A DNA stretch of 64,000 nt from Spirochaetia bacterium. GTDB lineage: Bacteria > Spirochaetota > Spirochaetia > SZUA-6 > Bin103. Position numbers and translations under genes: made by a program. Of this stretch, positions 10,174 through 59,795 are shown one piece after another. The notes beneath the pieces were generated by a model, which was given only the letters and a program-made list of their open reading frames with translations, was not told where the DNA came from and did not search any database. Positions within the stretch are counted from its first letter, which is position 1, and each line of letters opens with the position of its first letter. The stretch lies in the NCBI GenBank assembly GCA_965198005.1, contig CBDAOI010000004.1, forward strand, positions 2,336,001 through 2,400,000. The letters run 5' to 3'.

Positions 10174-10863
10174 CAGATAACTCCTGTTGCTCGAGAGTAC
10201 TGATAATCGACTGCCGGCCCCTCGCCTACTCTCAAGCTATGCCCGCTTCAACGCCGGCGAGCACAAGCGAGGGCGACACCGTGGGTACCCAGGCGGCACG
10301 GCCGCTTGGGGACGAGTCCGTGAGCTAGCCATGGCTAGTCGTAGCCGGTCTTGGGTGCCATCCCATCCTCCTTTGACGTGCGCGCACCACCGGCCTCGGG
10401 ATCGCGCCGGGACCTGCGTCCCAGCGTCCACGCGGCTGGCGAGGCGAGTTGGATTGCCCGGCAACGCCGGGAGCGGAGTTGATGAACGGGTTGATGAGGC
10501 CTGGTGCGCCGGTCTCGGCGCTGAACGGACGCCCTGTAGGCGCCGGGTCGGTTAGCTGTGTTGGTGTTTCTCGGAGGTCCCGTGTACCAACGGTCCCGTG
10601 GGGGGGGGTACAGGGGGGGTAGGACGCGCCGGTTGCGTTGCCGCTAGGAGCTTGTCGGCTTCGCCGACGAGGTCCGAGCGTACCGGTGGGATGGGCCACC
10701 CGCTTCGCGGCCCTTCGGGGCGGCGCCTCGGGCGTCGGTCTGAGGCCACCAAGCGACGATGGGGCGCCAACCGGTGGCAGCGCTGAGTAGTGTCACTACG
10801 TGTCAGTTGCATCCTTTCAAACCCGTCGCGCTTACCATGGCACACCTGTGGCAAATACGTCAA
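10174..10863 (-). promoter_or_regulatory. Complete SBP leader (divergent micro-ORF variant)
   Basis: TTGACG-18-CATGGT, uORF1, C-rich CTACCCCCCCTGTACCCC, CAGCTAACCG, GGAGG + micro-ORF, GCTTGAGAGTA/TACTCTCGAGC stem. Confidence 0.7.
10335..10361 (-). CDS. Putative leader micro-peptide MAPKTGYD
   Basis: AAAGGAGG SD; same position as uORF2 in other leaders; stop lies inside the palindrome CTAGCCATGGCTAG. Confidence 0.45.
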   Translation of the reverse strand: MAPKTGYD

Positions 10864-12885: not shown

Positions 12886-14318
12886 TCTGATCCTTTACCT
12901 GAGTGTTCCACGTCGGCCCGTCAGTAATCACCAACTCAACATCAACGCCAATCGCATCCCAGTAGGCGATAGATATTTCTCCATAGTCAGAAAACTGTGG
13001 AAAACTGTGAGACAATATGGTCTTAAATCTGATGCCGTCCGCGCCGCGCCTGTATCCGGCCTCATCAAGCAACGCTTCTGCCCCCTCCGGGTCATACCTG
13101 TAGTATTGCTTGATTTCTTCGGGCCAGGTTTCAAATGGCGTGCTCCACCCAATTTGATGTTCAGCTATTAACCCTTGAGGTTGCCAGGAAGCAAAACCCT
13201 TAAAGAAAGTTTCGCTAATTGTCTCAAGGTCCAGTGCCATCTGCATTGCTCGGCGCACTCTTATGTCGCTAAAGGGCGGCTCGGTTACGTTAAGGCTGAA
13301 GGCATAATTCGACCGTTGATAAAACGGCCACAACTCGAGGTCGGTTGTCTTCTGGAGGCTCTCAAAGTCGTCGAGAGAATTCATCGACCAATGGGTGCCC
13401 ATACCTCCAAAACCAACCTTGCCCGTGCGCAGCGCCGACAGACGTGTTGCTTCGTCTAATATAAAGAGGCCCTTTAACTCGTCAATATAGGGCAAGCGGT
13501 TCTCCGGGTATTTTTCGTCGTAGCCCCAGTAGTCAGGATTCTTTTTCCAGGTCATAGAGCTGCCGTCGATCCACTCAGTCAGCATATAGGGCCCGGTGCC
13601 GACCACGTTTCTCCAATCCGCAACGTCGCCGTGTTCCTTGATTACCTCGGGGGGGTAATATCCACGTCCAGGCGTCGTCGAGTATGATTTTCAGCGCACT
13701 GAGCATTGGCTGCTTCAGCTTAAAGACAACCGTCCAATCGTCGGTGGCTGTTATCGATTCGAATGTCACGTTGGGGATACTTCCAAAACGGGCGGGACGT
13801 TCGGTGAAGCCGCTGCCCAGAGTTGCGAGACGGTGCCAGTTATACTCTATGTCCTTGGCAGTTAGCTCCCGGCCGTTCATCGGTGCCTTATCATGCCAGT
13901 GAACGCCCTTGCGGATCTTGAACACATAAGTTGTGGCGTCGGGTTGCGACCAGCTTTCCGCCAGCTGCCCTATGAAGAAAGATTCAGGCACAACACCGCC
14001 GGATTTAATGTCATATACGTCCCGATCTATTCCCCAGTCCGCTTGGGCTAGCCTCTCATAAACGCCACTGACGAGGAACCCCGCGTGGTGACCAGTAATC
14101 GACGGGTCCGGTCCCTCGGACTCGGGGCCCCAGAGCAACATGAGTGTCCCGCCGTACTGCGGCGCGGTCACCATCTTGCCCGTGGTGGGGTCGAGCACCA
14201 TTTCCCTCTCGGCGGCGGCTGCCGACTCCTCTTCTGCGCCAGCGGCCCACAGGCCGGTGGCGGTCGGGGCCAGGACCAACGCAACCGCGAAGGTCATTCT
14301 AATGATTGCAATATTCAT
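12886..14318 (-). pseudogene. Family-5 SBP, frameshift in a G7 run (about 13650) and 3'-truncated
   Basis: MNIAIIRMTFAVALVLAPTATGLWA start with GGAG SD; conserved SBP blocks in two frames; ends at WNTQVKDQ. Confidence 0.85.
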
Positions 14319-15010
14319 ACGCTTCTCCGTATGTAGATTTTTTGAGAGTATTGCGGAGCGACTTGGCGCAGCTCCCTGGCTCCTCTCGCGCCTGCCACGC
14401 AGGCGGCCAGTCAGAGTCGAGTGGGTGACACGCGCGGCGTGCGACTCATCGGGCTCACGCCGCGCGCGCGTAGGGTTCTTTGAGCAACATTTGCACCTCC
14501 TTTTTCTGTAGGTTGCGGCAATTGACAGTGAGGGAGCTGCGTCACAACGCCACCCGCGGCGGCGGTCGGCGCAGCAGCAAGTCTGATTGACCGGCGACGC
14601 CGGCGGTGGGTCTTGCCGGCAGTGAGTCGCGGCGCGGATCCGGCTCGGTCGCGGTCGACGATAACGGCGCGGGCGGTCCGCATGCCGGTTCGCCGATGGA
14701 CCGAGCCGGTGAGGAGCAACGCAGCCAGGCGGGATGCATTCGCCGCTCGAATGCAGGCGGAGTTTCGCCACGGGCTGCGAGCTACGGCGGTAGTGAAGGC
14801 GACGGTGGTGTGCGCGGGGTCGCGTACGCGGCGATCAGCCGGAGCGGTTAGTTGTTCGTCGGTTCGAAAAGTGTGTGTGTGGGGGGGGGGGTAGAATGCA
14901 CCGGTTGCGTCACCGCCAGCCGGCCACTGCGCTCACTGTCATCATGGCGTTTCATCATCGATCCGTTGAATCGTGGGTTCAAAGTATAGGGCCCGGCGCA
15001 AGAACGTCAA
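14319..15010 (-). promoter_or_regulatory. Complete SBP leader
   Basis: TTGACG-16-TATACT, MKRHDDSERSGRLAVTQPVHSTPP, poly-C, ACTTTTCGAACCGA..AACAACTAACCGCTCCGGC, uORF2, stems; aligns with 57490-57986. Confidence 0.75.
14455..14490 (-). CDS. Leader micro-peptide MLLKEPYARAA
   Basis: AAGGAGGTGCAA-ATG; homologous to 50381 and 57807. Confidence 0.65.
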   Translation of the reverse strand: MLLKEPYARAA

Positions 15011-40904: not shown

Positions 40905-41692
40905 GCGCGACATCCACCGGTTAGGGGCAACGCAACCGGCGTGTCCTACCATTGCCCCCCCCGGAATCCTTTCGCGGCGGGGGTTGACAAATGGTGGGCC
41001 CCCCAGACTGTCTCTTCAGGCCATCGACTGCCGTTCACCGAGGATTGCTGGGGCGATTCGTGGTTGACGTCCTCGGGAGTGGAGGTTATTATAGGGTGGG
41101 ATGCAGTCAATCGCGACTACATCTGGGTCTGGGTATAGCTGTGCCTCACCTGCGGAGGGCTTGAGTGACCTATAACACGTCAACCCTTATGACACTCTGT
41201 TCCCCTGACAGCCGCTCGCCGAGATTTGCTGAAAATCAGCTCGCGGCGCGCTTGCTTAATGGTGAGGAGTGCCCCCCCCCCGGCGCCGGGCAACACACCT
41301 AACTTTTCATTCACCCCAGAAACAGCTAACCGCTCCGGCCGACCGGGCGGAGCACGCGCACCTGCGTGTGCTCCTGCGCACACCCGCGCCTTCGGCATCA
41401 CTCCGTCAACTACCGGGCCAGGCGATCCAGGCGACACCCTGCGCCTGCCGCGTGGCCGTGTGGATGGCGTCGAAATCCGGAACTCTGCGGAACAAGGAGG
41501 TGCAAGCTGATACTCAAAGAACCACACCAGGCGCGCGGCCTGAGCCCCTGAGTTCATGAGGCACACGCCGCGCGCTCCACGATTGGAGATTGCCGTTGCT
41601 GTCTGGCCGCCCGCGTTGCGGGCGCGAGAGTGGCAGCGAAAGGCAACTCGCCGGCAGAACTCTCAAAATCAGAGTATGGAGGAGAGATCATT
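40905..41692 (+). promoter_or_regulatory. SBP leader interrupted by an IS-end-like piece
   Basis: IHRLGATQPACPT..PP (about 40910), C11 (41271-41281), GAAACAGCTAACCGCTCCGGC, GGAGG-CTGATACTCAAAGAACCACAC, GAGAGT/ACTCTC. Confidence 0.7.
41168..41228. repeat. About 60-bp repeat shared with 56361-56421 (probable IS end)
   Basis: ACCTATAACACGTCAAC.CTTATGACACTCTGTTCCCCTGACAGCCGCTCGCCGAGA. Confidence 0.7.
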
Positions 41693-49822: not shown

Positions 49823-50319
49823 AATGGGAATTTTCCACCCTTCGCCGCATCTGTCAAGCTGACCCGGGTGCGGCGTGCCAAGCAGCCGTTCCGTCCGACC
49901 GGGCGGCGCACGCCGTACCTGCGTGTGCTGTTCCAACAGGTCGACGAGGAACTCTGGCGCTGATGCGCATCTGTCCGGACATCTCCGGGTACAGCCACTT
50001 CAGGCGAGGGATGCCGGAGGCGGTGCGAACCGTGACCCGGGCCCGGTCGGTGTTGGTGGCGGCCATCCTCCTGGGCGAGTGGGTGCCGGGTTGGCGGCCA
50101 TCCGCCGTCGGCGCCGGTCGGGAGCGGCACACCACCCCGCATCGCGTTGGCACGCAGGTGCGGACGCCCGTCGAGCGGTCGGTGTTGGCCTGATGGGACG
50201 CACCCGCGCCACGCGCTGGGCACGCCACAACACCGCCGGCACCCAGACCAGACCCTATTCTGGTCCGAAAAAGCGGACCAGCGGGCGATGCCTGTGCATC
50301 GCTTTTCATGGTCTTCCGT

Positions 50320-50563
50320 ATCACGCAGTGACCGTGCCGACTCTATCAATTGCCGAAACCTACAGAAAATGGAGGTGCAAATGATACTCAAAGAACCGCA
50401 CGCGCGCGCGGCGTGAGCCCGGGTGAACCCGGTGAGTCACACGCCGCGCGCTTCAGGAAGTTGACTCTATCTGGCTGGTCGCCTGCGTTGCGGGCGCGAG
50501 AGTAGCCAGGAAGCGGCAATCCGCTTCGCAATACTCTCGAAAAATCCACATACGGAGAAACGT
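50320..50563 (+). promoter_or_regulatory. SBP leader, 3' part
   Basis: TCAATTGCCG.AACCTACAGAAAA.GGAGGTGCAA shared with 14491-14525; hairpins; CGAGAGTA/TACTCTCG. Confidence 0.75.
50381..50416 (+). CDS. Leader micro-peptide MILKEPHARAA
   Basis: GGAGGTGCAA-ATG. Confidence 0.65.
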   Translation: MILKEPHARAA

Positions 50564-51737
50564 ATGAACATTGTAAAAATCAGAATGACCTTCGCGATTG
50601 CGTTGGTCCTCGCCCTGACCGCAACCGGCCTCTGGGCCGCCGGCGCAGATGAGGAGCCGGCAGCCGCCGCCGACAAGAAGTATGTAACCGACCCCACAAC
50701 CGGCAAGGTGGTGACTGCGCCAGAGTATGGCGGGACAATAACCTTCGCCCGAAAAGAAGAGCCGGCGGGTCCTGACGCCGTGCTCAGTGGTTTATGGGTG
50801 CTAGACTACGTCGGTGGCGTTCTAGAGAAGCTGGCCATGGCGGACTGGGCAACGCCCAGAGACAAATTTGACTTCGTAGGTTATGCAGTGCCTCTATTCG
50901 CCTTAAAAGGGGCCCTGGCGGAAAGCTGGTCGCAGCCCGACCCACTGACGTATGTCGTCAAAGTCCGCCAGGGCGTTCACTGGCACGATAAGGCACCGAT
51001 GAACGGTCGGGAGCTGACTGCCGATGATATCGTATATAACTATCACCGAATCTTGGGACTCGGCAGCGGGTTCACCGAACCTAGCGAATTTGCCACCACT
51101 AGCTGGGCCGGTGTGCAAGTGGAATCGATAACGGCCACCGACAAATGGACGGTTGTTTTTAAGCTGAAGGAGCTAAACCTCCGTGCGCTGGCTGCTATCC
51201 TCGACGGCCACATCGTCTGGATATACCCCCCCGAGGTAATCAAGGAACACGGGGACGTTACGGATTGGAGGAACCTGGTCGGCACCGGACCCTTTATGCT
51301 GACTGACTGGACCGAGGGCAGCTCTGTCACCTGGGACAAGAACCCTGACTACTGGGGCTACGACGAAAAATACCCGGAGAACCGCCTGCCCTATGTCGAC
51401 CAATTAAGGGCTCTGCTTATGCCCGAGGTGGCAACAATGTTGGCGGCACTGCGCACAGGTAGGGTTGATCGTGGATACGAATTAAGGAGTCTCGACCAGG
51501 TAGAGAGCCTCCAGCGCACTAACCCCGAAATCGTGATATGGCCATTTTCCAATCGGTCGGATAATGCTTTCGGTATGAACGTTCAGTTGCCGCCCTTTGA
51601 CGACATCAGGGTGCGCAAGGCACTGCAGATGGCAATAAACCTCGAGGAAATTAACAATGCCTTCTACAAGGGTTATGCAGATGTGACACCCCCGCCTCTG
51701 GGTTGATAGTGAGCTGAAGGAGGCAATGGGTCGATAG
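50564..51737 (+). pseudogene. Family-5 SBP with an internal deletion near 51692
   Basis: GYADVTP fused out of frame to the terminal RLWVDSELKEAMGR*. Confidence 0.88.
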
Positions 51738-57287: not shown

Positions 57288-57321
57288 GTGGTAGGGTGTG
57301 GTCGGGTAAGCACCGTTCTGG

Positions 57322-57986
57322 TTGACCCGTGTCACGGGTCCGTGCTACGGTCACACTGTAGAGCCATGAGCTGTCAGATTTCTTCGACTTCTTCGACGCA
57401 GGTGATTGCCCCGAGTCGCGGGTCCGTGCTACAGTCGCACGGTAGAGCCATGGACGGTCCCTGTAGCGCCCACAACAAGTTAGCGCTTATGCCTGTACCC
57501 CCCCCCCCCCCCGACTTTTCGAACCGAGAAACAACTAACCGCTCCGGCTGATCGCCCTGTACGCGACCGCGCGCGCGCCGTCGCCTTCACCACCGCCGTA
57601 GCTATCGGTGGCGCCGGCTCGGTCCATCGCCGAACCGGCATGCGGGCCGCTCGCGCCGTTCCCAGCGGCCGCAACGGTCCCGGATCCCCGCCCGCGACCG
57701 ACTGCCAGCAAAACCCACCGCCGACGTTGCCGGTCATTCGGACTCGCTGCTTCGCCGACTACGACCCCGCGTGGCGTTGTGACGTGAGGAAGAAGAGGAG
57801 GTGAAGATGATACTGAAAGAACCGCACCCGCGCGCGGCGTGAGCCCGGGTGAATCCGTTGAGTCACACGCCGCGCGCTTTTAGTGAATTTGACTCAGACT
57901 GGCCGTCCGCGTTGCGGGCGTGAGAGTAGCCAGGGAGCGGCAAGTCGCTCCGCAATACTCTCAAAATCCAAGCAAGGATACTAACG
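57322..57986 (+). promoter_or_regulatory. Complete SBP leader with a duplicated promoter-like unit
   Basis: 47-bp repeats 57322-57368 and 57406-57452; CTGTA-C15; AACAACTAACCGCTCCGGC; uORF2; TGAGAGTA/TACTCTCA. Confidence 0.75.
57807..57842 (+). CDS. Leader micro-peptide MILKEPHPRAA
   Basis: GGAGGTGAAG-ATG. Confidence 0.65.
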   Translation: MILKEPHPRAA

Positions 57987-59795
57987 ATGACGAAAATCCT
58001 ATTTCGAATGACCTTCGCGATTGCGTTGGTCCTGGTCATGGCCGCAACCGGCCTGTGGGCCGGCGGCGCAGAAGAGGCACCGGCAGCCGCTGCCGACAAG
58101 GAGATGGTGACCGATCCCACCACCGGAAAGGTGGTGGTGGCACCACGGTACGGCGGGACAATAACCTACGCCCTATCAACAGACCTTCCGGGACCTGACA
58201 CCGTGCTCACTGGTGGAGCGGCGGCTCACTCCGCCGGTCCCGTTGTAGAGAAGCTGGGCGCCGCGGACTGGGCAGCTCCCAGGGACAAGTTTTCCTTCAA
58301 CATCTATGAACTCAATATTCCTGCTAACACGAAAGGGGTGCTGGCGGAAAGCTGGTCGCAACCCGACCCACTGACGTATATCATCAAAGTCCGCCAGGGC
58401 GTCCATTGGCATGATAAGGCACCGATGAACGGCCGGGAGCTGACTGCCCAGGATGTCGAGTACAACTTTCACCGTATGGTGGGTATAGGTAGCGGTTTCA
58501 CCGAAAAAAGCCCTATGGCTTATAGCTTCCAAGCTGGGGAATTCGAATCGATAACGGCCACCGACCAGTCGACGGTTGTTTTTAAGATGAACAAGCCCCG
58601 CCTCAGTGCGCTGGCTTCTATCCTCGACGACTGGTCTGCCTGGATATATCCCCCCGAGGTGATCAAGGAACACGGGGATGTTTCGGATTGGAGAAACCTG
58701 GTCGGAACCGGACCCATGATGATGACTGACTGGACCAAAGGCAGCTCTCGCACCTATGAGAGGAATCCTGACTACTGGGGATACGACGAGAAATACCCGG
58801 AGAACCGTCTGCCCTATATTGACCGGCTGAGGGGCCTGGTTATGCCCGAAGTCGCGACACGCACGGCTGCACTGCGCACGGGTCAGGTTGATTATGTAGG
58901 TGCGCTCGGCCTAACTTCATTGAGGAATCTCGACCAGGTAGAGAGCCTCCAGCGCACCAACCCCGAAATCGTGATATCGTCGTATACTTTTCGGAATGAT
59001 GGTGCTGTTAGCTTGAACGTTCAGATAGAGTCCTTTGACGACATCAGAGTGCGCAAGGCCATGCAGATGGCAATAAACATCGAAGAAATTAACAATTCCT
59101 ACTTTGGAGGTTTGGGAGATACGACACCTCAGGGGAAGATAAGCAGGTCTTATGCAGGGGTTGTCACCCAATTCGAAGATTGGCCCGAAGATGTCAAGAA
59201 GGTCTTTGATTACGACCCGGAAGGTGCCGAAGCGTTGCTTGATGAGGCCGGATATCCTCGCGGCGCCGACGGTATCAGATTCAAGACCAAGTTCTTGCAT
59301 CTCGAGCGGTACGATTTGAACTATACACAATTGATCACTTCATACTGGAACGAGATTGGCATCGATGTAGTAGACATTGAAGTATTGCCATTTGCTGGCT
59401 TTGCCGCGAAAAGAACTGACAAGGATCACGAAATGATCAGTAGCGAGTTGGCCAACTATGGGGATCCCATAAGCTACATGAGGTCCTATTCGAATCACCC
59501 GAGCAACCCATATGGGGCGGATTCCAATGTCAACGACCCTGTTTATGACGCCATGCTTGAGGCTGCCGAAGCCGCTACCACTATTGAGGAGCAGCACAGG
59601 TTAGTTCGAGAGTTGAATCAATATGGGATTGAGAAGTTCTGGATGATATGGACTCCTAATGGTCCACAATTCAACGCGATCAAACCGTGGATCATGGGTT
59701 TCAACAACGAAAACTGGATGGGTAACGGTCAAGTCCTGGTAGTGTTCACCCGCCTGTGGATTGACCAGGATCTGAAGACGGAAATGGGCTATTAG
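57987..59795 (+). CDS. Family-5 ABC substrate-binding protein, intact
   Basis: Signal peptide AATGLWA, conserved SBP blocks, 602 aa. Confidence 0.92.
   Translation: MTKILFRMTFAIALVLVMAATGLWAGGAEEAPAAAADKEMVTDPTTGKVVVAPRYGGTITYALSTDLPGPDTVLTGGAAAHSAGPVVEKLGAADWAAPRDKFSFNIYELNIPANTKGVLAESWSQPDPLTYIIKVRQGVHWHDKAPMNGRELTAQDVEYNFHRMVGIGSGFTEKSPMAYSFQAGEFESITATDQSTVVFKMNKPRLSALASILDDWSAWIYPPEVIKEHGDVSDWRNLVGTGPMMMTDWTKGSSRTYERNPDYWGYDEKYPENRLPYIDRLRGLVMPEVATRTAALRTGQVDYVGALGLTSLRNLDQVESLQRTNPEIVISSYTFRNDGAVSLNVQIESFDDIRVRKAMQMAINIEEINNSYFGGLGDTTPQGKISRSYAGVVTQFEDWPEDVKKVFDYDPEGAEALLDEAGYPRGADGIRFKTKFLHLERYDLNYTQLITSYWNEIGIDVVDIEVLPFAGFAAKRTDKDHEMISSELANYGDPISYMRSYSNHPSNPYGADSNVNDPVYDAMLEAAEAATTIEEQHRLVRELNQYGIEKFWMIWTPNGPQFNAIKPWIMGFNNENWMGNGQVLVVFTRLWIDQDLKTEMGY

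Follow-up and report, generated by a model that had tools for sequence, protein, structure and literature searches.

The question raised by the stretch of DNA considered here, 64,000 nucleotides (nt) of a Spirochaetia bacterium (contig CBDAOI010000004.1, positions 2,336,001 to 2,400,000 of the forward strand; hereafter the window), is why genes for family-5 substrate-binding proteins (SBPs) should carry, far upstream of their own start codons, a micro-ORF (open reading frame) of eleven codons that is headed by a very strong Shine-Dalgarno (SD) sequence and ends inside the arm of a stable hairpin. The peptide might be the product, the hairpin might be a switch, the letters might matter as RNA, or the ribosome that reads them might be what counts. 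The last explanation, that of a 'ribosome-parking' leader ORF, is favoured here with a probability of about one half for the whole. Within it, the micro-ORF is probably a translated upstream ORF (uORF) that acts in cis, and the specific effect, that of an obstacle or stabiliser, is advanced only tentatively and could easily be wrong.

A micro-ORF leader in 75 copies

In the copy under study (copy B, plus strand), the SD GGAGGTG at 50371-50377, a perfect complement of the 16S rRNA 3' tail, is followed by the micro-ORF at 50381-50416 (ATG to TGA, MILKEPHARAA-stop), of which codons 1-6 form a constrained head and codons 7-11 lie in or beside a hairpin arm. This arm, the 5' strand of a 12-base-pair (bp) GC stem termed P1 (GCGCGCGGCGTG, 50404-50415), takes in the last four codons and the UG of the UGA and pairs with CACGCCGCGCGC at 50440-50451, both arms being assigned from folding and stem conservation. 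A conserved GAGTCA box in the P1 loop (50434-50439) is complementary to a conserved TGACTC box in the linker (50462-50467), and a second structured region, domain 2, was placed at 50471-50538 by folding and a covariance model. The SBP gene's own weaker SD (GGAG) and its ATG follow at 50554-50566, and the SBP_bac_5 ORF occupies 50564-51706. The coordinates given by a first-pass annotation for all five leaders of this kind in the window were re-read and are correct.

A pattern search of the whole genome returned 79 matches, of which 4 were excluded as unrelated sequence without the hairpin, leaving 75 copies of the MILKEP-type (core) leader in the organism's own genome (4.89 Mb, four contigs); the family thus extends well past the four window copies originally noticed. 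With blastn, the leader gave 86 high-scoring segment pairs in the same genome, and of the 149 SBP_bac_5 N-termini located with tblastn, 74 are preceded by a core leader. GGAGGTG lies 3-6 nt 5' of the start in each core copy. The organism's own 16S rRNA ends in GGATCACCTCCTTT, of which AAGGAGGTG is the perfect complement over 8-9 nt, and the extended complementarity (AAGGAGGTG against ..CACCTCCTTT) lies inside the 5' untranslated region (UTR), 135-225 nt upstream of the main start. The claim that this SD is stronger than that of the SBP gene was borne out, GGAGG being found before the own start in only 2 of 67 core SBP genes. The start codon was always NTG in the 75 own copies (69 ATG, 3 GTG, 2 CTG and 1 TTG). 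In five sister genomes, the core word was found at 109 sites, 73 with ATG, 18 with GTG or TTG, 8 with CTG and 10 without a start; the CTG sites constitute a conserved subfamily with the full GGAGGTG, and the SD has decayed too wherever the start was lost.

The head of the ORF varies in the manner of a coding sequence. Among the 75 own copies the entropy profile is three-periodic, and codons 3, 5 and 6 vary only at the third base (CTC/CTG, GAA/GAG and CCN), the first and second bases being invariant. In 109 distinct contexts from eight genomes (66 own and 43 from other genomes, one probable false match being retained), 67 synonymous and 23 non-synonymous variant occurrences were counted, and 8 of the 10 possible synonymous single-base variants were seen, compared with 9 of the 35 non-synonymous ones (Fisher p = 0.003). 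Parsimony on two trees, one of the SBP protein and one of the leader, with the 65 of 74 copies that have an intact SBP gene, put the events in codons 2-6 at about 37 synonymous and 6-7 non-synonymous, with a dN/dS near 0.05; these counts are upper bounds, since the 5' leader module seems to recombine on its own, and the paralogs counted are not independent. Three synonymous changes at once (CTA, AAG and CCC) leave MILKEP intact in one sister copy, and in-frame indels were found in two others (a 15-nt duplication and a 6-nt deletion). Purifying selection on the amino-acid sequence is thus seen in codons 2-6 and not in codons 7-11, as well as in the ..TGYD ending of a second class described below; synonymous substitutions had been noted in the first-pass annotation, and in codons 2-6 they dominate the variation.

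The leader is also represented in RNA libraries. Six metatranscriptome runs contain 23-28% of the sampled words of 57300-59300, a region that includes copy C of the leader (plus strand; SD 57797-57803, micro-ORF 57807-57842 with MILKEPHPRAA-stop, P1 arms 57830-57841 and 57866-57877, SBP gene 57987-59795). RNA-library contigs, which are assemblies rather than reads, possibly derive from DNA and give no strand, level or 5' end, cover the SD, uORF, P1 and domain 2 of this copy in four of four runs from three studies. Contigs that fit from 57796 or 57797 run on upstream for at least 27-29 nt as the upstream modules of other paralogs, so the SD and the uORF are inside contigs assembled from RNA libraries. 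Contig depth pools paralogs and relatives, and low-depth bins 5' of the SD are not evidence of a transcription start.

The limits of these libraries, as well as those of the event counts, weigh against a translated leader ORF, and so do several further observations. A sigma-70-type promoter scan found no site in either of the two leaders scanned. In the genome, which is 90% complete, RNase Y (658 bits) and Rho (698 bits) were detected but neither RNase J nor RNase E/G, the enzymes at work in the best-studied cases of stabilisation. At the 10 start-less sites of the 109 in sister genomes (about 9%), which belong to lineages common to up to four species, ATACTCAAAGAACC, P1 and an intact SBP gene are retained in the absence of the SD and start, and the window gene at 57987 has its ortholog (91% identical) among these copies; the uORF can therefore be dispensed with, and some of the constraint on its sequence may act at the RNA level. 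Finally, ATA and AAA are each kept in 74 of the 75 own copies, yet they represent only 24% of the Ile and of the Lys codons, respectively, in SBP genes. Their near-invariance fits an A/U-rich unstructured initiation region, but it is a constraint at the level of nucleotides.

The persistence of ATACTCAAAGAACC and P1 in several species after loss of the SD and start, together with the almost invariant third positions of ATA and AAA, would be expected of an element that acts as RNA only, in which the frame would be a by-product, GGAGGTG would recruit a 30S subunit or some other factor with no productive translation following (as in STAB-SD) and ATACTCAAAGAACC with P1 would be an RNA structure or a protein site. 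Nucleotide-level constraint extends across the whole leader, the median identity of which is 83%, compared with 62.6% for SBP DNA, 57.6% for its third positions and 49.5% for the SBP protein; the leader was more alike than the SBP gene in 2076 of 2080 pairs, a difference that also speaks for the ribosome-parking reading. An SD alone can also stabilise a transcript, according to excerpts of PMC7509114. Such an element would nevertheless not account for a synonymous excess centred on third positions, for own-genome start codons that vary at the first base only, for the joint loss of SD and start, or for the duplication and deletion of sister copies being in frame, and it is regarded as unlikely.

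Tail, stop codon and hairpin P1

Folding of the copy B leader gave -90.9 kcal/mol (z = -4.8 against 200 shuffles), and P1 was found to be the dominant feature of the leader, with a loop that ranges from 12 to 57 nt among 104 distinct copies. The stem is near-invariant in these copies, with 3 compensatory double changes and some 30 one-sided mismatches; with so few covarying changes, P1 rests on its stability and conservation. The first-pass annotation had described the stop codon as buried in this hairpin, and the U and the G of the UGA do lie in the P1 5' arm in most copies, but the position of the stop varies and a hairpin at the stop is limited to this class. In 11 of the 75 own copies the ORF stops at codon 7 (TAG), giving MILKEP or MTLKEP. 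Codon 7 is the most labile of all (CAC, TAC, TAG and others, with 16-17 events), and behind it some copies present 2-nt frameshifting deletions, loss of the TGA or extension of the ORF. In the larger alignment, on which the first-pass annotation had staked its reading, the start was conserved (99 of the 109 sister sites, counting CTG), whereas the stop and the frame behind codon 6 were not, which counts against that reading in part. An Ala-to-Val variant coincides with a stem extended to 17 bp. The variability of the tail and its shaping by the hairpin indicate that HARAA-stop is a reading of the hairpin arm and no conserved peptide, which an element acting as RNA only would equally predict. 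A programmed frameshift at AAA-G before the hairpin was considered and rejected by eye, no canonical slippery site and no meaningful alternative frame being seen.

A ribosome with the UGA in its A site would cover the whole P1 5' arm, so that translation would open P1, as judged from geometry and folding. The first-pass annotation had gone further and proposed a leader-peptide attenuator or switch, in which a ribosome that stalls or terminates in P1 alters the folding of the downstream leader and thereby gates transcription or translation of the SBP gene. What looks like a real cis-acting uORF, with a stop-bound ribosome that must unwind the P1 5' arm, is what stood of that proposal; the switch was not supported. 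When the ribosome footprint was masked, domain 2 and the SBP start site folded unchanged in four of four window leaders, the only new helix being GAGUCA:UGACUC in copies B and C. This helix, the conservation of both its boxes (at least 90%) and the stop codon, which most copies have within the 5' arm of a highly stable hairpin, are consistent with an attenuator; the boxes are fully paired in 63 of 79 copies, but the helix covaries weakly, its variable pair having 2 compensatory changes and 8 mismatches (A-G or A-C). Additionally, P1 was not called as an intrinsic terminator on the plus strand by a terminator scan, no U tail is conserved after it, no part of the leader varies more than the stretch that follows it, and the hairpin is retained where the uORF is lost. 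Considering also the variable stop and the lack of a stop hairpin in the other leader classes, an attenuator or switch is decidedly improbable.

On the minus strand, part of the P1 5' arm was called at 50399-50415 as a terminator-like site, made up of a short self-complementary hairpin and a T-rich run after it (CGGTTCTTTG); the A-rich head of the uORF might also serve an antisense or bidirectional terminator as its tail.

Pseudoknot, leader classes and spread

Domain 2 is an H-type pseudoknot with the order P2 5', P3 hairpin, P4 5' (GAGAGUA), P2 3', P5 hairpin and P4 3' (UACUCUC). In copy B these elements are found on the plus strand at 50471-50479 (P2 5', CTGGC/CTGGT), 50480-50496 (P3), 50498-50504 (P4 5', GAGAGTA), 50505-50509 (P2 3', GCCAG), 50510-50527 (P5) and 50532-50538 (P4 3', TACTCTC). 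Covariation was observed in P4 among 84 leaders: pair 2 is AU in 77, GC in 4 and GU in 3; pair 6 is UA in 67, CG in 9 and UG in 4, with 4 mismatches; and pair 7 is AU in 63, GC in 9 and GU or UG in 5, with 7 mismatches. The P2 arms differ by class and are still complementary (CTGGC/GCCAG, CCCTCGCT/GGCGAGGG, CCTTCGCT/GGCGAAGG, CCCTCGTC/GACGAGGG and CTCTGTC/GGCAGGG). The P3 hairpin is tandemly duplicated in about 20 own-genome leaders (e.g., L013, L019, L021, L024, L026, L027 and L030). The possibility that AUACUC of the uORF serves as a decoy for the P4 3' strand AUACUCUC was dismissed by eye, as no covariation with P4 is seen in the CTG variants and other classes lack the resemblance. Rfam 15 gave no match at gathering score in the 64-kb window, and for 50300-50600, with E values up to 10, only four chance-level matches (E of 1.7 or more). 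The pseudoknot, which lies directly 5' of the SBP starts and has no Rfam family, may by itself represent a novel cis-regulatory RNA motif.

The same pseudoknot links the core leaders to others. At least six sequence classes of uORFs of 1-15 codons, each with a 16S-matching SD, were found to head long SBP_bac_5 leaders in a single genus of uncultured Spirochaetia, the MILKEP class being the commonest. The non-core classes have an AAGGAGG SD 135-225 nt before the SBP start and encode, each followed by a stop, MxPKTGYD, MKHPTGYD, MKSPYD, MxN, VKP or VKL, MKP or, in five leaders, nothing beyond the start codon (ATG-TAG or ATG-TAA start-stops). When a strict uORF was defined by GGAGG, a spacer of 4-8 nt, ATG or GTG and at most 16 codons, it was present upstream of the SBP gene in 60 of 74 core regions and in 29 of 75 non-core ones, compared with none in either set of reverse complements and with shuffle means of 1.1 (core) and 0.9 (non-core), the maximum being 3. 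In the non-core regions the uORF and the pseudoknot occur together: both were found in 25, the uORF only in 4, the pseudoknot only in 14 and neither in 32. Variation in the MxPKTGYD class covers all four GGN codons, ACC/ACG, TAA/TAG and a three-base change of AAG to CGC (Lys to Arg), and conservation stops at the stop codon. Unrelated uORFs at the same place, with exchange of TAA and TAG and conservation that ends at the stop, argue against an element acting as RNA only.

The classes also bear on the two explanations in which the peptide is what matters. Class-specific nascent chains (MILKEP, ..TGYD) might arrest the ribosome depending on a metabolite or on the status of release factors or EF-P, like TnaC, SpeFL and cat/cmlA, and could block Rho where the spacer is C-rich and G-poor. 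The peptides are conserved within classes, including the three-base Lys-to-Arg change and the C-terminal YD or EP before the stop, Rho is encoded, and A/C-rich repeats are present in the spacer behind MxPKTGYD uORFs. However, six residues do not extend far into the exit tunnel, start-stops and three-codon ORFs cannot sense anything via a nascent chain, and the elements are common to about 100 transporter genes, presumably of differing specificity, so that an arrest peptide is very unlikely. No repeated regulatory codons were found in MILKEPHARAA, MxPKTGYD, MxN, MKP or the bare start-stop. Regarding the peptide as a product, secreted or signalling and perhaps imported by Opp-like transporters, 75 near-identical coding copies would provide a high dose, and SBP_bac_5 proteins bind peptides. 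Nevertheless, there is no export signal, the 11 copies with an early stop end after six residues, the tail is set by RNA pairing, and the sister classes encode M-stop, MKP and MQN. A signalling peptide had been thought the less likely role from the start, and these start-stop and three-codon ORFs make it extremely improbable.

The leader is confined to close relatives in the genomes searched. With blastn, it was found in 7 of 10 other genomes of the genus, the larger of which yielded 70-100 first-look candidates each, and in none of 17 genomes from other families of the order; a lone match among 13 sister-genus genomes sits in coding sequence and was discarded as noise. The covariance model of the downstream domain (R1) gave 85 sites in the own genome and none in 150 other genomes sampled across the phylum, and four weak matches in sister-genus genomes, within apparent coding sequence, were likewise taken as noise. 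A metagenome scan with an 18-nt P1 word returned 32 stretches, of which one was a leader (L190) and 31 were chance GC-rich matches. A literature search that leaves out most subscription journals gave no match for 'MILKEP'. SBP homologs with 40-60% identity occur in two other lineages of metagenome-assembled genomes (14 and 9 loci) and in Dehalococcoidia (3 loci); among these 26 loci the pseudoknot was not found and the uORF was found once, by chance. It is possible that the SBP gene family passed from one co-occurring lineage to another and that the leader originated inside the spirochaete genus.

Near-identical leaders were also seen on 6.5-kb and 4.5-kb contigs (L180 and L126) binned to Tectimicrobiota and to another bin, which are probably mis-binned spirochaete contigs rather than cases of horizontal transfer. 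About 38 of the 149 SBP paralogs belong to a further subfamily (signal peptide ..LALAFALVA..), whose leader has the hairpins CCGGAGTATCCGG and CCGGGTACCGGG and neither uORF nor pseudoknot.

Copy A of the core leader, on the minus strand, has its SD at 14500-14494 and its micro-ORF at 14490-14455 (MLLKEPYARAA-stop). Copy D, on the plus strand, has its SD at 41496-41502 and a CTG-start ORF at 41507-41551 (LILKEPHQARGLSP-stop), in which one inserted base throws the usual TGA out of frame; it belongs to the CTG subfamily, present in four sister genomes. The fifth leader, of a different class and on the minus strand, has the SD AAAGGAGG at 10374-10367 and encodes MAPKTGYD-stop at 10361-10335. Its stop had been reported to lie in a palindrome, and the TAG is indeed within CTAGCCATGGCTAG, but the palindrome is not kept in the paralogs of that class. 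Domain 2 was located in these leaders at 57899-57962 (plus, copy C), 14343-14422 (minus, copy A), 41588-41665 (plus, copy D) and about 10192-10268 (minus, fifth leader; model score of 34.9 bits). The alignable part of the four core copies measures about 200 nt and reaches from GGAGGTG to where the SBP gene starts, and the downstream genes match SBP_bac_5 in Pfam (E values of 1e-49 to 5e-67) and are followed by BPD_transp_1 permeases.

Two SBP genes behind core leaders in the window look truncated or split, namely 50564-51706 (380 residues) and 13575-14318 on the minus strand (about 248 residues), their paralogs having about 600 residues, and these may be frameshifted pseudogenes. Homopolymers of 8-23 C and recurring upstream modules (e.g., GCGTGGCGTTGTGACGCAGGTCCCGACGT) were noticed 100-300 nt 5' of the SD in own-genome upstream regions and, in the window, at 41270-41285 and 10590-10610 (minus); the shuffling of upstream modules between leaders points to a modular recombination of their parts.

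The proposed ribosome on the leader and known systems

Since classes with start-stops and three-codon ORFs exist, what unites these elements would be the ribosome, loaded at a very strong site onto a long and structured leader. The copy number and anatomy of the leaders, the coding-like constraint and the association of uORF with pseudoknot are shown by the data, and translation itself, pausing and the direction of the effect are inferred, as follows. A 70S ribosome would load at the very strong SD and would be held back by Pro6, by the GC hairpin that it has to unwind or by a context unfavourable to termination (Glu-Pro-stop, Lys-Pro-stop, Tyr-Asp-stop or start-stop); Glu-Pro-stop, Lys-Pro-stop and Asp-stop are poor contexts for termination. 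The parked ribosome, and not the peptide made by it, would then be what matters: it would hold P1 open and would be an obstacle that shields the long structured leader from 5'-end-dependent decay, from Rho, or from both (RNase Y and Rho being encoded), so that the yield of SBP mRNA would follow translational capacity. The pseudoknot before the SBP start would be a separate module that is not refolded by the ribosome.

A bolder proposal, which is also improbable, is that 'parking' or arrest peptides and the pseudoknot together form a protein-free regulon switch, in which the dwell time of the ribosome, set by translation status or by a small molecule sensed via MILKEP or ..TGYD, gates about 100 transporter mRNAs; if this were true, the shuffling of modules between leaders would tune each transporter separately.

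Bacterial uORFs are usually encountered at single loci, whereas this one genome holds about 100 natural replicates of a leader in which a tiny ORF, a hairpin and a pseudoknot are combined. With several peptide classes, start-stops and natural knock-outs in sister species that have lost the SD and start, they offer a rich comparative system for very short bacterial uORFs. They also bear on the control of ABC substrate-binding proteins, the largest gene family of this uncultured symbiont-type spirochaete, and add an RNA motif without an Rfam family.

Among known systems, the trp, his and pyrBI attenuators share an SD-led leader ORF that overlaps the first arm of a hairpin, but no run of regulatory codons, U-tailed terminator or alternative antiterminator pairing was found in the present leaders. 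In the tna leader, arrest of TnaC at Pro-stop masks a rut site for Rho. The likeness lies in a short leader ORF in which the last residues and the stop context matter, in the presence of Rho and in the copies that end in Glu-Pro-stop; in contrast, the spacer of the core class is structured, G-rich and a poor Rho substrate, and its peptide has 6-11 residues and not 24. The SBP ribosome-binding site of the core class lies about 150 nt downstream of the micro-ORF and is unpaired with P1, with no exposed ribosome-binding site or masked rut next to the stall. The mgtA leader, a Mg2+ riboswitch with the Pro-rich uORF mgtL, resembles the present one in combining a structured RNA and a short Pro-containing uORF, but domain 2 has no Rfam family and is known here from sequence and folding.

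The closest likeness to the proposed role of the ribosome is to transcript stabilisers. The STAB-SD of cryIIIA was reportedly described by Agaisse and Lereclus in 1996. In Bacillus and E. coli, an mRNA is stabilised by a ribosome that is stalled or bound at a strong SD close to the 5' end, as stated in excerpts of PMC7509114 and PMC5737220, and the excerpts of PMC7509114 name the ermC, gsiB, aprE and ompA transcripts, sometimes stabilised without a start codon. As far as these excerpts go, the ermC/ermA leader, the cryIIIA STAB-SD, gsiB, aprE and hbs share with the present leaders a very strong SD, with or without a short ORF, far upstream of the main start, a long 5' UTR and, in the present case presumably, ribosome occupancy in cis. 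The spirochaete leaders differ from the ermC and STAB-SD stabilisers in their number (about 100 copies per genome) and in their several peptide classes, as well as in the amino-acid constraint on the ORF head, the stop in a GC hairpin and the conserved pseudoknot that follows; RNase J, moreover, was not found here.

Very short uORFs provide the second parallel. In E. coli, the start-stops of yecJ and hslR bind ribosomes and modulate the host gene (excerpts of 10.1101/520783), and in S. meliloti the very short uORF3, uORF4, uORF13 and the uORF of the hfq leader affect downstream genes (excerpts of PMC13285730). Within the scope of these excerpts, they resemble the present elements in having 1-5 codons and an SD of their own, in encoding no functional protein and, in the present case presumably, in modulating a downstream or host gene, but they are single loci with small effects, whereas a conserved architecture across a gene family is seen here, with a uORF 135-225 nt from the main start, a distance that excludes direct occlusion or coupling. 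The element is of a known kind, a bacterial regulatory uORF or ribosome-binding leader element, and what is new in it is the architecture, the copy number, the diversity of classes and the association with a pseudoknot that has no Rfam family.

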